Program-made: the position numbers
NCBI RefSeq assembly: GCF_000026545.1
Contig: NC_011601.1
DNA: 64,000 nt
Strand: one strand, 5' to 3'
Source of the DNA: Escherichia coli O127:H6 str. E2348/69
Lineage (GTDB): Bacteria; Pseudomonadota; Gammaproteobacteria; Enterobacterales; Enterobacteriaceae
Part shown: positions 1-11,727 of the stretch, in pieces
Position numbering within the stretch: position 1 is the stretch's first letter
Layout of the letters: every line of letters begins with the position of its first letter

Positions 1-3000
1 ATTCCGCGCAGCAATCTCACCACACAGGGTTTAGGAAAAAAATATCCCATAGCCAGTAACAAGACCGCCCAGGGCCGCGCCGAGAACCGCCGCGTCGCAG
101 TGGTGATTACAACCCCTTAAAACATGAGCAAACAGACAAAAAAAGGGCCAGCCAATTGGCCAGCCCTTCTTAACAGGATGTCGCTTAAGCGAAATCTTAG
201 TTAAGACGCTTTTACATGATACCATTGATAAACATGCATTTTTCATTATAAACAGTTAGTTATATGTATCACTAGTGTAGTCAAGTGCAGCCATAAACAT
301 GCTGTGTGGGCAGATTGTGGACACTACTTATTTCCCTGTCCAATCTTACCCGCAACTGCCTCGGTAAGCTTTACTAAGGTTTCAAGTTCATTTTTGTCTA
401 ATTTTCTTGCTTCAATAATTTCAGTAGTCTGCCCTGATTCTAGTTTTCCAACTCTTGAGCTAAAATTAATTTTATCCAGAAGGTCTATCATATCGATATC
501 TTTCTGGCTAGCCATTACAAGCTTTATAATGGCATAGCTTTCCTCACGTGAACGTTTTATTGCCTCGTAATAGCGAAACTCATCCATCGTAACCCGATAT
601 TGCTTCAAAAAGAAAAATGCGATTAACTCCAAGAAAATCAACACGCCAAAATTAGGGAGAAGATACATTACCTTGGTTACCGCATCATCCTTAGCATCAA
701 TTACATGTGATTGAGAATAGAAGAAACCTAATCCAACTATTGCAAAACAAACACCGACTAATAAATAAAGACTACCGCGAGAATATATGTTTTTCGCAAG
801 ACCTTCAGAGCTATTAATCAAACCTTTAAGATAAAAATCCAGAGATTCATCTTCATCAGCAGCAGCCCTTTCCTCTTGAGCCTTCTTGAGTAGTTTTATC
901 TCATTTATAATATCGACAATATTAAACATCGATGATTTGTCGACTGAATCACTCCCTGTAATTCTCATAAACATTCTTTGGATTGGAGACACACCATAGA
1001 TAATGGTGTAAACGATTACAAATGACACTGCGAATATTGACCTGATAAAGCTCGGCAAATGTGTAAGATCTGCTCTCGCACTGGGAAATAAATAATAAAA
1101 GGTTGAGTCTAATATCCCTGTAGCAAAAATTACATTTGCAACTAGAAAGACTGCACCTATCTCAACTAAATTATAAAAACCACGAGTGCGTACCCTAATG
1201 ACTTTGGCCTCGGTCATTCTTGGAGGTGTTTCGATGGTTGGCTCACTCATCATATAATCCTGTTAAATTAGAAATAGGGTTAAGAGTTACAGCTTCTTCT
1301 AAATGATCTGGTGCAAAATGAGCGTATCTCATGGTTTCCCTAATGTTAGAATGGCCCAAGATTCGTTGCAGTACTAAAATGTTCCCACCATTCATCATAA
1401 AGTGACTCGCAAATGTATGACGTAACACATTCGTTTTTTGCCCTTCAGCTAACTCTATATCGGTCAGAGCGAGCATTTTCTTGAACTCCTGATAGCAGGG
1501 GTGGAACATTTTTCCCTGTAAAGGAGCCAACTCGTCATATAGCCACCGAGGGATCGGTACTGTACGATTCTTCTTTCCCTTGGTTTGGGAGAAGGCTCTG
1601 CATTACCTGTTGGCGTCCCTGTTCCGTGGCCTTCAGCCACACCGCCAACAGGCTGGCTGAAATGCAATGGTGCAGCTTTTTCTGCTGAAGAATACCCGGA
1701 ACTGGCAAAGGCTTATCCGGCAAATAAATTGCCTGATTTACGTGGTGAGTTTATTCGTGGCTGGGATGACGGACGGGGGATTGATACAGGTCGCTCTATT
1801 TTAAGTATTCAGGGGTATGCAACGGAGGATCATGCTCATGGATTACCGTCAAGATCCACGATTGTGACTGATGCAACGATTAATTTCTATTTTGATGAAA
1901 GCTGGGTAAATAGTGGCACTGACATTATCAAAAGAGGAAACACAAACGATGCCGGATTACCAGCACCGGATTATGGAACCTTTAAAACATATAAACAATC
2001 AGTGGCTGGTTTAGGTGCCGCAGCCTCAGAAACGCGTCCGCGTAATATTGCATTTAACTATATCGTGAGGTCAGCCTGATGCATAAAGCAATATTAAATA
2101 GTGAGCTTATTGCAACAAAGGCAGGGGATGTTACCGTTTATAACTACGATGGTGAAACACGGGAATATATTTCCACGTCAACTGAATATCTTGCGGTTGG
2201 CGTCGGTATCCCGGCATGTTCTTGTTTAGATGCGCCAGTTACACATAAAGCTGGTTATGCAATCTGCCGTTCTGCAGATTTTAACTCATGGGAATATGTG
2301 CCAGACCATCGCGGTGAAATCATCTATAGCACAGAAACAGGAGAATCGAAAGAAATCACAGCTCCGGGTGATTATCCTGAAAATACAACCACTATCGCCC
2401 CGTTAACGCCATACGATGAATGGGATGGTGAGAAATGGGTAACAGATACTGTGGCACAGCATAGCGCCGCAGTAGGCGCGGCAGAAGCACAGCGTCAGTC
2501 ACTGATTGATAATGCAATGGCTTCCATTAGTCTGATTCAGCTGAAATTGCAGGCCGGACGGAATCTGACGCAGGCAGAAACCGCCCGACTTAACGCTGCG
2601 CTGGATTACATTGACGCGGTGACGGCAACAGATACCAGCACCGCGCCGGATGTCATCTGGCCTGAACTGCCGGAGGCGTAGGCCATTCAATATCTGGCGC
2701 ACCGGAAGTATCGACCAGTTCCAGTGCGTCCAGATAATCCAGCCACAAATTATATTGCGCCAGTTCCTCACCTTTCAGACGACCAATAGCCGCTTTACCA
2801 GGCCATTGTTTACTGTTCATATAATCGTTGGCCTGATTAATCAGTTGCTGCTTTTCAAGTTCGGCTGCAGCAATCTGTTCCTCATGTGTTGGTGGTGGAA
2901 TTTCAGTCCATGCAGGAAAACTATTTTCTCCAGCGATACGGATTTTTCCTTTCGGCGGTAATCCGGAAAACTCAATATACACTTGCTCATCAACTTCAAC

Positions 3001-9000: not shown

Positions 9001-11727
9001 GCTGACCGGCGGTAAGCTCACGATGCTGGCGCTTTATGCAATGGCTGAACAGGGGCGCGCATGGCCGCTTATCTCTGGCTCAGGCTGGATTTACGGGATG
9101 TTTGTTGTCAGTAATGTCTCGGAGACCGGCACGGTATTTTTTGAGGATGGGACGCCACGAAAAATCAGCTTCACCCTGTCACTGACCCGTGTCGATGAGT
9201 CGCTCGCCGCGGTGTATGGCGATATTGGAAAACAGGCCGAAAGTCTGGTCGGGAAAGCTGGCGATCTGCTGTCGATGGTGGGGGCGTAATCATGCTGGAT
9301 ATTATCACCGGCGCGGGTGCCACGCTGACGCCCGACTTTATGCTGACACTGGAAAGCAAAGATATCACCGGCAATATCAGTGACCGGCTGATTAACCTCT
9401 CGATGACGGACAATCGGGGTTTTGAGGCCGACCAGCTCTACATCGAGCTCGACGATACTGACGGTCTGGTCGCATTGCCGATTCGCGGTGCGGTGCTGTC
9501 GCTGTATCTCGGGTGGAAAGGTTTCTCTCTGGTCAGCAAGGGGCGATTTACCGTCGATGAGGTAGAGCACCGGGGGGCGCCGGATACGGTAACCATTCGC
9601 GCCCGGGGTGCGGATTTTCGCGGGACGCTTAATTCCCGTCGTGAGGAGTCATGGCATGACACCACGCTCGGCGCAATCGTCAGCTCGATAGCTGAGCGGA
9701 ACAAGTTAACGGCCAGCGTCACTGATTCTCTTGCGGGGATCCAGATTCCGCATATCGACCAGTCTCAGGAATCCGACGCCGTTTTCCTGACTCGCCTCGC
9801 AGAACGCAACGGCGGTGCGGTCTCAGTGAAAGCGGGTAGATTGCTGATGCTCAAAGCGGGAAGCGGTACCACTGCCAGTGGAAAAGCTATTCCTCAAATT
9901 ACCATCCAGCGCGGTGACGGTGACCGGCATCAGTTTGCCATTGCCGACCGTGGCGCTTACACCGGCGTAACCGCTAAGTGGCTGCACACTAAAGACCCGA
10001 AACCGGCGAAACAAAAGCAGACAGTGAAGCTGAAACGTAAGCCCAAAGAGCAACACCTCCGGGCGCTACAGCACCCGAAAGCAAAACCAGTGAGCAGTAA
10101 AGTCACGGCCAAAAAGCAAAAAGAGCAGGAAGCCCGCGAGGGTGAATACATGGCCGGTGAGGCTGACAACGTTTTCGCGCTGACGACCATTTACGCGACA
10201 AAGGCGCAAGCGATGCGTGCAGCTCAGGCGAAGTGGGATAAATTGCAGCGTGGGGTTGCGGAGTTCTCCATTATGTTAGCGACCGGCCGCGAGGATATTT
10301 ACCCCGAAACGCCGGTCAGGGTCTCAGGCTTTAAGAGCGTTATAGACGAGCAAGCATGGATAATCAGCAGGGTGACCCATAATCTCGGTGGGAATGGCTT
10401 CACAACGGCTGTAGAGCTTGAGGTGATGCTTTCGGATGTAGAATATGACACCGACGAATCTTGATTATACAAACAAAACTTGCAAATGTAAGATTCAAGT
10501 TTATTATCCCCCTCAAGTCAGCAAGGAGAGGGAAGAAATTATGATGCACTGTCCGCTATGTCAGGATGCAGCACACGCACGATCAAGCCGGTACCTGAGC
10601 ACTGAAACGAAAGAGCGCTACCACCAGTGCCAGAACATCAACTGCGGTTGCACTTTCGTCACCCACGAGAGCCTTGCTCGTTTTATCGTGAAGCCAGGAG
10701 AAATTGAACCCGCCCCACCCCACCCGTCTAAATACCAACAACATCAGCTCTGGCTTTAAATCAAAGGCCTGCTTTGCAGGCCTTCTTGTATCAAACTTAG
10801 ATTGGTAATGAAAAAGCTATCGCCTTGCAGATATGTTGCTTTGTTAACGCAGGATGTGTTGAAGCAAAAAGCGATAAAAAGCTTTTAGCTTCAACCGAAT
10901 CATCATTAAGCGAAATATTATCTTTGATGAATGGATGAAGTGCGATTCCAGCGCTCATAGATAACGGCACATAGTTGATGAATATATCTTCTTTTGTGAG
11001 ACCTAGCTGGTTTGCTTGTGCTTCAAATGAATTAGCATCTAAATAATCACGTATACGTTCTTTGGCCTCTGGTCGGAGTCTCGATTCTTGACGCGGCAGA
11101 GAAAGCATCTTATCAATATCTCCCCATGAGATAGGAACCTCAAAATAGCCACCACCTTCTTCCTCTAGAGGTGCCGGGAAATTCACATAAAAATAGTTTT
11201 TTTGCTGTGTAGGGTCGTTCATGGACTGACGATGATAGTTATAAATACTTCTAATACGGTTGGCCTTGTTATGATGCCGAGCATTTCGAATAACAAGCAT
11301 CATTAATAATTCAGGTTTCAAATACCAGTCAGGCTCTAATCCATTGCTTTGCATGTTGTCATACAAATTATGAAAAGCATTAAGTTGTGTATTCAGGCCC
11401 GATTCTAAATTGCCAATTGCTTCAGCACGATCAATAGCCAACAAACGCTGTAGTGACCAGTTAGACTCTAATAAAACCCGAAAGGCCTGTGCAAGATCTT
11501 CAAAAGAGTGGGAAAGCATCCTTTACGTCCTTATACGCACATTCATGAGATTTCAGTGTAAACCAAAAGTACTAAACTAACAGTATCAGGTAGATGATGG
11601 ATAGATGGGCTGGCAAGTATTCTATCTGCGTGGACACTCTATGGACACTCAAAATAAAAAAGGGGTTAGCTCTACGCTAACCCCTTGTTTTATAACACGC
11701 TTTGGATGTGGCGTGAACGCGTTATTA

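Follow-up and report, generated by a model that had tools for sequence, protein, structure and literature searches.

Background

Temperate phages of the Peduoviridae such as P2, 186 and PSP3 share a gene order that begins with the integrase gene int and ends with FI-FII-E/E'-T-U-D, the activator gene ogr and the attachment (att) site. This order is retained in an element lying between yfiB and rplS in Escherichia coli O127:H6 strain E2348/69, at the start of the 64,000-nt stretch of chromosome analysed here (NC_011601.1; hereafter the window), the first 12.2 kb of which are 100% identical to the E2348/69 chromosome record NZ_CP059840.2. The element is a P2/186-family prophage remnant of 11,528 bp, approximately 35% of the complete prophage genome. 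In our judgement it was most probably produced when a 32.5-kb P2/186 prophage at rplS was truncated by a Din-family serine invertase acting at a quasi-site in int. The remnant resembles P2 in its Int arm-type repeats and PSP3 in its hairpin and att core, and the complete relatives of the element carry a CI/CII/Fil switch like that of phage 186. It differs from PSP3 in pairing P2-type arm sites with a PSP3-like core, the arms of PSP3 being 186-type GCCGCCA repeats. In the element, moreover, one extra gene separates int from attP and another separates ogr from attP; both are absent from PSP3, and P2 has no gene in the int-side position. Unlike P2, the remnant also contains an invertible tail-fibre cassette and an invertase gene between the fibre genes and FI.

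Invertases of the Din family, including Gin of phage Mu (G segment), Cin of P1 (C segment), Pin of the e14 element (P segment) and Hin of Salmonella, are serine recombinases encoded beside an invertible segment, and the remnant shares their arrangement, its invertase gene lying next to a segment of ~1.9 kb bounded by 26-bp sites centred on AA or TT. As in Din-family systems, its segment holds mirrored alternative fibre C-termini together with assembly genes. It departs from these systems in that the apparent outcome was not an inversion but a natural 21-kb deletion which destroyed the prophage, and in that the constant fibre exon is gone and the left crossover site is a hybrid with one poor half. 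Like e14, it is a defective, non-excising remnant with an apparently active invertase that flips a fibre segment (PMC4272514, matched to the present locus by length and repeat). Unlike e14, it is P2/186-like rather than lambdoid, it occupies the 3' end of rplS, and its deletion can be traced to the base through near-identical complete copies.

In most respects this is an ordinary prophage remnant of a well-studied strain, already annotated in RefSeq, and the matching invertible segment has already been published. It nevertheless provides a base-resolved natural case in which a phage invertase apparently destroyed its prophage via a quasi-site, an outcome rarely documented outside plasmid experiments. 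It also points to the 3' end of rplS as a PSP3-type attachment site, at which the phage gives an essential ribosomal operon a new stop codon and terminator, and it draws attention to two uncharacterised, widely distributed genes flanking attP that are reasonable candidates for lysogenic-conversion or defence functions.

Complete copies of the prophage and the age of the deletion

The gene content of the element was taken from the annotation of the identical E2348/69 record by the NCBI Prokaryotic Genome Annotation Pipeline (PGAP) together with PHROG and NCBIfam matches. The order is yfiB, a gene for a protein of 309 amino acids (aa), an int fragment, the invertible fibre cassette, the invertase gene, FI-FII-E/E'-T-U-D-ogr, a 240-aa gene and rplS. 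These matches agree with the earlier note on this DNA, made from the sequence alone, which had described a P2-like remnant between yfiB and rplS with the same gene list and a truncated int abutting the inversion cassette ahead of a retained FI-to-ogr tail module; both the annotation and the profile matches show this arrangement.

Searching 5,426 genomes with each end of the element separately identified 16 genomes. In three of these, all O127:H6, the two ends lie 11.5 kb apart, giving a total of 3/5,426 genomes with the remnant form. In the other 13 (PCN033, FORC 064, O166:H15 strains and others) the ends lie 32.5 kb apart and enclose a complete prophage at the same site, at ~99.9% identity to the remnant. 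The PCN033 copy, which is likewise sited between yfiB and rplS, contains in order the 309-aa gene, a full int (1558–2595 of the complete-prophage stretch), a 186-type CI/CII/Fil switch, a replication gene, the genes from portal to baseplate, H, the invertible cassette, the invertase gene, FI to D, ogr and the same 240-aa gene. Compared to PCN033 the remnant is missing the head, lysis, baseplate, replication and immunity genes as well as the constant tail-fibre exon, precisely the losses that had been listed from the E2348/69 sequence before a complete relative was at hand.

If the invertible segment is left aside, identity between the window and PCN033 is 99.6% over positions 1–1586 and 99.85% over positions 3453–12200 (13 mismatches in 8,748 bp). 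Several proteins are identical between the remnant and the complete prophage, including the 309-aa protein (WP_001294850.1 in both). On this comparison the remnant evidently arose recently from a known complete prophage by an internal deletion of 21.07 kb and, because the retained genes are nearly identical to those of complete prophages, the intact open reading frames (ORFs) of E2348/69 indicate only that the deletion is young.

All 13 complete prophages carry the same two end genes as the remnant. The earlier note had considered these genes to be cargo, while accepting that their presence in complete prophages at this site would speak against it, and host acquisition specific to the remnant is thereby ruled out; judged by this distribution, the 309-aa and 240-aa genes belong to the normal accessory content of the intact phage.

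The deletion junction

The int fragment (1243–1593, minus strand) is annotated by PGAP as a pseudogene 'missing N-terminus' and matches the integrase family phrog_1. It is non-functional, representing the C-terminal ~116 of 345 aa, and runs collinear with the full-length PCN033 int as far as position 1586 of the window. The window is identical to int up to ...TTCTTCTTTCCCTT (ending CCCTT) and to the crossover site in the fibre gene H from CCTTGGTTTGGGAGAA, and in a three-way alignment that includes FORC 064 it agrees with the crossover site in H of that genome from CCTTGGTTTGGGAGAAGG onward. Since identity to int ends and identity to H (its crossover site pixL) begins at this point, the exchange must lie within CCTT, which holds the central TT of a hybrid crossover site, TTCTTCTTTCCC-TT-GGTTTGGGAGAA (1568–1593). 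The left half of this site derives from a quasi-site in int and its right half from the tail-fibre site: at the junction position intact int carries TTCTTCTTTCCC-TT-CGTTTTAGTGAA, and pixL in complete prophages reads TTCTCAAAAACC-TT-GGTTTAGGAGAA. Measured on PCN033, where the TT of int is at 1895 and that of pixL at 22968, the deletion removed 21,073 bp.

We compared each 26-mer of the 32.5-kb prophage with the half-site consensus, for a maximum score of 20. The int quasi-site scores 14/20, a value reached at just three non-cognate positions of ~32,500, and it is the sole one of these with a TT centre, i.e. in direct orientation with pixL. The joint is thus located at the central dinucleotide, its partner site has the same TT, and the relative orientation is that which predicts deletion, the product expected from a serine invertase acting on directly oriented sites with a common central dinucleotide. 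Cin reportedly generates deletions at quasi-sites as well. Its choice of quasi-cix sites is reported to follow the central dinucleotide (Iida and Hiestand-Nauer 1986/1987, cited in PMC4134206).

In the history that we propose, a temperate phage of the Peduoviridae would have integrated via its tyrosine integrase into the last 14 bp of rplS, restoring the rplS stop codon and supplying a replacement terminator. In the O127:H6 lineage this prophage would later have lost in a single event a 21.07-kb stretch that starts at codon ~230 of int, takes in the immunity, replication, head, lysis and baseplate genes and ends with the constant part of H, when a Din-family serine invertase joined the tail-fibre crossover site to the directly oriented, TT-sharing quasi-site in int. 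The enzyme may have come from the prophage itself, as its Pin-like protein, or may have been an interchangeable invertase from Mu or the other P2-like prophage of the strain; E2348/69 also carries Mu and a second P2-like inversion system (PMC4272514), hence any of the three invertases could be responsible.

The invertible tail-fibre segment

The segment that remains next to the junction (1581–3466) contains two alternative fibre C-terminal exons (1585–2079 on the plus strand and 3115–3453 on the minus strand) and assembly genes, and is bounded by a perfect 15-nt inverted repeat at 1580–1594 and 3453–3467. Two inverted 26-bp sites with complementary central dinucleotides flank it, namely the hybrid site at 1568–1593 (TT) and the right crossover site pixR, TTCTCCCAAACC-AA-CGTTTAAGAAAA (3454–3479, AA), which fits the 26-bp Din-family consensus quoted in PMC4134206 (Table 3). 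A serine invertase gene adjoins the segment, as is the case in Din-family systems. The constant 5' fibre exon that those systems possess is absent, the constant part of H having been deleted so that the int fragment abuts the site. Relative to E2348/69 the orientation of the segment is opposite in PCN033 and the same in FORC 064; complete prophages show both orientations.

Goldberg et al. described a 1,888-bp invertible locus, labelled 'P2' and found in the forward orientation in 93 ± 4% of cases in E2348/69 colonies, whose repeat is given as TTG(G)TTTGGGAGAAG (PMC4272514 Table S1). Positions 1580–3467 of the window match this locus in length and, allowing for one G missing from the printed repeat, in repeat sequence. 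We therefore propose that the segment still flips through the hybrid site in E2348/69, taking the published locus, matched in this way, to be the present one. All three O127:H6 assemblies carry the majority orientation. The 93:7 skew between orientations fits a left hybrid site with one poor half. With the constant exon deleted, inversion would no longer switch any complete protein.

Enzyme-mediated or illegitimate deletion

Several points weigh against an invertase as the agent of the deletion. Wild-type invertases of the Gin/Hin type strongly prefer inversion to deletion, so a deletion made by one of them would be a rare event. The left half of the quasi-site is poor, matching at 6 of 10 specified positions. 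The tie to the published inversion data is a match in length and repeat only. Finally, the parental sequences share a 4-bp microhomology, CCTT, at the junction, which is compatible with a deletion independent of any enzyme.

Short-homology deletions are common in prophage decay, and the 21-kb loss could in principle be one of these, an ordinary illegitimate event at the shared CCTT that hit the crossover site by chance without any recombinase. However, one end of the deletion lies exactly at the 2-bp point of exchange within a 26-bp site and the other on the best directly oriented quasi-site among ~32,500 positions, and it is very unlikely that both ends would coincide with such sites by chance; an intact invertase is moreover present, and the matching segment has been published as flipping (PMC4272514). 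We therefore regard an illegitimate deletion as improbable, and favour truncation by a Din-family invertase at the int quasi-site.

Consequences of the deletion for the remnant

The int fragment is without the arm-binding and core-binding domains and, because the integrase, repressor, excision factor and replication genes are gone, the remnant should be incapable of autonomous excision or replication. The att sites at both ends and the arm-type sites are intact, so that excision might still be possible if a related Int were provided in trans. Since the baseplate genes V/W/J/I, the genes R/S, the constant fibre exon and the lysis genes are missing, neither a tail nor a tailocin is likely to be made and the tail genes would be without function; of the components of an R-type tailocin (sheath, tube, baseplate, fibres and lysis), the remnant lacks the entire baseplate, R/S, constant fibre and lysis set. 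The gene sets missing relative to PCN033 thus support the view, expressed in the earlier note, that the element can produce neither a phage nor a complete tailocin.

That note had also read the intact ORFs as a sign of partial domestication, in which the tail module, invertase and end genes would have been kept by the host for a tailocin-like or phase-variable function. It is true that every retained ORF is intact, that the segment apparently still inverts (if the published locus, matched by length and repeat, is the same), and that independent remnants in Enterobacter and Citrobacter, described below, keep the end genes. However, the 13 substitutions in 8,748 bp between the remnant and complete prophages, and the several proteins identical in both, leave no time for decay, so that intactness reflects recency. 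The missing baseplate, R/S, fibre and lysis genes make a tailocin impossible, the remnants of other genera keep no tail genes and no invertase, and the remnant form occurs in just 3/5,426 genomes. There is little to recommend domestication as the explanation, and the retained genes are better accounted for by a recent invertase-mediated deletion.

Boundaries, attachment core and terminators

A three-way alignment of the empty site with both ends of the window defines the junctions of the element as a 14-bp direct repeat, TTAGTTAAGACGCT, located at 197–210 (attL) and 11725–11738 (attR). In the empty yfiB-rplS site, which is typical of most E. coli genomes and in which 76 bp separate the two genes, TTAGTTAAGACGCT is present in a single copy; host sequence stops at 210 and restarts at 11725. 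An imperfect repeat around the core extends to ~35 bp (GGATGT...). The element accordingly has the layout of a P2-like prophage, with int at one end, ogr at the other and a direct-repeat core bounding both. The alignment of the yfiB-rplS region, which the earlier note had proposed as the check on its boundaries, thus moves them from 317 and 11638 to TTAGTTAAGACGCT, ~107 bp further left and ~87 bp further right.

The attR copy of the core covers the stop codon and last codons of rplS (..ERLN*), and occupied and empty sites encode the same rplS product, L19 (WP_000065253.1). The native bidirectional yfiB/rplS terminator hairpin (140–171; present in the empty site and terminator-like on the minus strand) is found after integration on the attL (yfiB) side, downstream of the 309-aa gene. 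A phage-borne bidirectional terminator hairpin (11660–11686; terminator-like on both strands) now lies 3' of rplS. This hairpin is conserved in the attP region of Salmonella phage PSP3 (PSP3 positions 1290–1420), which contains the TTAGTTAAGACGCT core with the same hairpin upstream, and the full-length Int of the complete prophage is 76% identical to that of PSP3. Because of this identity, and because the PSP3 attP shares both hairpin and core, the 3' end of rplS can be identified as the attachment site of a PSP3-type integrase lineage. This implies that the bacterial attachment site of PSP3 itself, which is listed without an integration site in Table 1 of PMC3448106, is likely to be the rplS 3' end.

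Arm-type sites of the integrase

Within each boundary lies a pair of 8-mers that we predict to be Int arm-type sites, TGTGGGCA and TGTGGACA on the int-proximal side (305–323, plus strand; equivalent to the P' arm) and CGTGGACA and TATGGACA on the ogr-proximal side (11629–11647, plus strand; equivalent to the P arm). The members of the pairs start at 305/316 and 11629/11640, a spacing of 11 bp in each case, and both pairs are on the same strand, 80–110 bp inside their att core. No other pairs of TGTGGACA-like sites with this 11-bp spacing exist on the two strands of the 64 kb (shuffle mean 0.01 pairs). In the reference record of P2 the Int P' arm is annotated as cTGTGGACActgTGTGGACACTC and the P arm as TGTGGTCAatgTGTGGACG, and the pairs in the window match these. 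The consensus of P2-type arm-binding repeats, at least two of which lie to either side of the core, is tgTGGaCa (Nilsson et al., PMC3448106), and the element has two direct repeats of this kind on each side.

Each pair contains the motif GTGGACACT, which the earlier note had suggested as the att core. The motif occurs exactly twice in the window, at 317–325 and 11630–11638 (expected 0.14; 1 of 100 shuffles reached two), so these two copies are real and non-random as claimed; the third copy that had been reported at 11643–11650 is a near match, TGGACACT, and is located at 11642–11649. The motif lies inside the element and matches the Int arm-binding repeat, and on these grounds it can be taken to mark the integrase arm-binding sites of attL and attR and not the core. 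Although its confinement to two positions in 64 kb would suit a target duplication with the element ending at 317 and 11638, there is practically no chance that GTGGACACT is the core, since the empty-site alignment rules this out by giving a different 14-bp duplication (with host sequence up to 210 and again from 11725), the empty site does not contain the motif, and each arm has a duplicate of it 11 bp away, in the manner of P2 Int arm sites.

The Int of the complete prophage combines a PSP3-like core with P2-type arms (TGTGGACA), in contrast to the 186-type repeats of PSP3. At the three N-terminal residues proposed in PMC3448106 as discriminators of arm type, the complete-prophage Int has W-D-R, PSP3 has W-E-Y and P2 has Y-D-R. 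This suggests that D and R, rather than the Y/W position, may track recognition of P2-type arms.

The two end genes

The 309-aa gene (324–1253, minus strand, hypothetical) lies 3' of int and overlaps it by 11 nt, while the 240-aa gene (10797–11519, minus strand, hypothetical), which encodes a soluble protein, is in the same orientation as rplS and downstream of it. The low G+C content at both ends of the element (0.36–0.42) coincides with these two genes. For neither gene was anything significant found in PADLOC, NCBIfam, Pfam (searched with single sequences and with all alignment members) or PDB sequence profiles. A Cas5a match obtained in these searches (E = 0.0015, no domain passing) was treated as noise, and CyanoTRADDas_TM matches (E ~ 0.01, 3 of 36 members) were regarded as noise or at most hints.

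The 309-aa protein matches phrog_5157, a family with no assigned function. It is predicted to be a multi-helix (4-helix) membrane protein, although its structural model has a predicted local distance difference test (pLDDT) score of 64, too poor for a fold search. Because the gene overlaps the int stop codon and lies downstream of int, we infer, by analogy with the biology of 186, that it would be co-transcribed with cI-int in a lysogen of the intact phage. A homologue of this membrane protein in Pseudomonas pergaminensis, 289 aa long, is encoded just 3' of AAA_23/SMC_N and LmuB_C (Lamassu-type) genes, in a neighbourhood that also contains the conflict-system domains CTD7 and MC3 and is apparently a defence island.

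The family of the 240-aa protein is widespread; its members do not vary in length, and the motif RNARHHN (R78–N84) is invariant among them. A HEPN-domain RNase, defined by a four-helix fold and a catalytic Rx4-6H motif, was among the identities considered for this protein. Its structural model is confident (pLDDT 93.7), and a fold search with this model returned AFDB50 matches that are all uncharacterised and PDB matches that are weak, generic helical bundles. In Enterobacter lambdoid prophages homologues occur as single genes in the nin region, between a DNA methylase gene and dinI, and in Vibrio parahaemolyticus they are found in long arrays of short same-strand ORFs resembling superintegron cassettes. 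Such a distribution is typical of mobile accessory or defence genes.

Remnants at rplS in Enterobacter and Citrobacter

A remnant at rplS in Enterobacter hormaechei (3596–6160 of the contig) consists of the hairpin, an arm-type TGTGGACA site, a homologue of the 240-aa gene (90% identical in aa sequence), short leftovers of ogr and then of int (aa 287–339), a 318-aa homologue of the 309-aa protein (48% identity), a second copy of the core and the native terminator. The 240-aa and 318-aa end genes are its only intact genes and are adjacent apart from the ogr and int scraps; both copies of the core are kept. Between the hairpin and the arm site (~3780–3900 of the contig) there is a short fragment, recognised by eye, that apparently encodes the N-terminus of an IS200-type transposase (MGLYRSSSHVYWRCKYHIVWTPKYRF...). 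In Citrobacter portucalensis a remnant between rplS and yfiB (4882–6900 of the stretch compared) retains int aa 211–338 (92% identity) and a 299-aa homologue (50%) beside yfiB, and at its rplS-side end has in place of the phage sequence the native terminator and ~700 bp of unrelated DNA with a small ORF. The slot downstream of int seems to be occupied by diverged alleles of a single gene family.

The Enterobacter and Citrobacter remnants keep end genes and have no tail genes and no invertase, which hints that the end genes, and these alone among the retained genes, may be useful and selectively retained. A broader scenario can be imagined, in which invertase-driven self-deletion at quasi-sites is recurrent and locks P2-like prophages in place, and selection at rplS, in E. 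coli, Enterobacter and Citrobacter alike, keeps one or both end genes as lysogen-protecting (anti-phage or exclusion) functions; we regard this as an unlikely though not fanciful extension of the proposal for E2348/69.

Gene content of the remnant and of the complete prophage

Within the invertible cassette PGAP annotates a tail-fibre C-terminal fragment (1585–2079, plus strand), the fibre assembly gene tfaE (2079–2681, plus strand), a second assembly gene, tfa (2653–3093, minus strand), and a second tail-fibre C-terminal fragment (3115–3507, minus strand). The serine DNA invertase gene that follows (3534–4112, plus strand) is intact and encodes a 192-aa protein of the Pin/Gin/Cin/Hin family (phrog_125, E = 1e-91; 'recombinase family protein' in PGAP).

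The tail module from FI to D (4177–10464, plus strand; PGAP, NCBIfam) has ~75% nucleotide identity to phage P2, compared to 99.85% to the complete prophage. It comprises, all on the plus strand, the sheath gene FI (4177–5364), the tube gene FII (5377–5895; TIGR01611 above cutoff), E (5958–6230), E', which ends at 6391 and is reached by a -1 frameshift (slippery heptamer TTTTTTG at 6212–6218), the tape-measure gene T (6384–8813; TIGR01760 above cutoff), U (8825–9289) and D (9292–10464). As in P2-like phages, this conserved order is followed after D by an activator gene, here of the ogr/B type encoding a zinc-finger late activator (10541–10759, plus strand; NF007241, 134 bits against a cutoff of 116). 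No exact copy of the P2 late-promoter dyad TGT-N12-ACA is present upstream of FI (4040–4180) or of ogr (10465–10540), and the sole exact match in the element sits within gene T (7339–7356). The FI promoter must lie within or just 3' of the invertase gene, and may not conform to the P2 consensus. A search of window positions 1–13000 against Rfam returned no match.

In the complete prophage of PCN033, two hypothetical genes occupy the old/tin-type slot before the portal gene (7906–9572), and a 447-aa DUF4062 protein is encoded between the tail-completion and baseplate genes (18442–19785). The replication endonuclease gene and yfiB of PCN033 are both annotated with internal stops.

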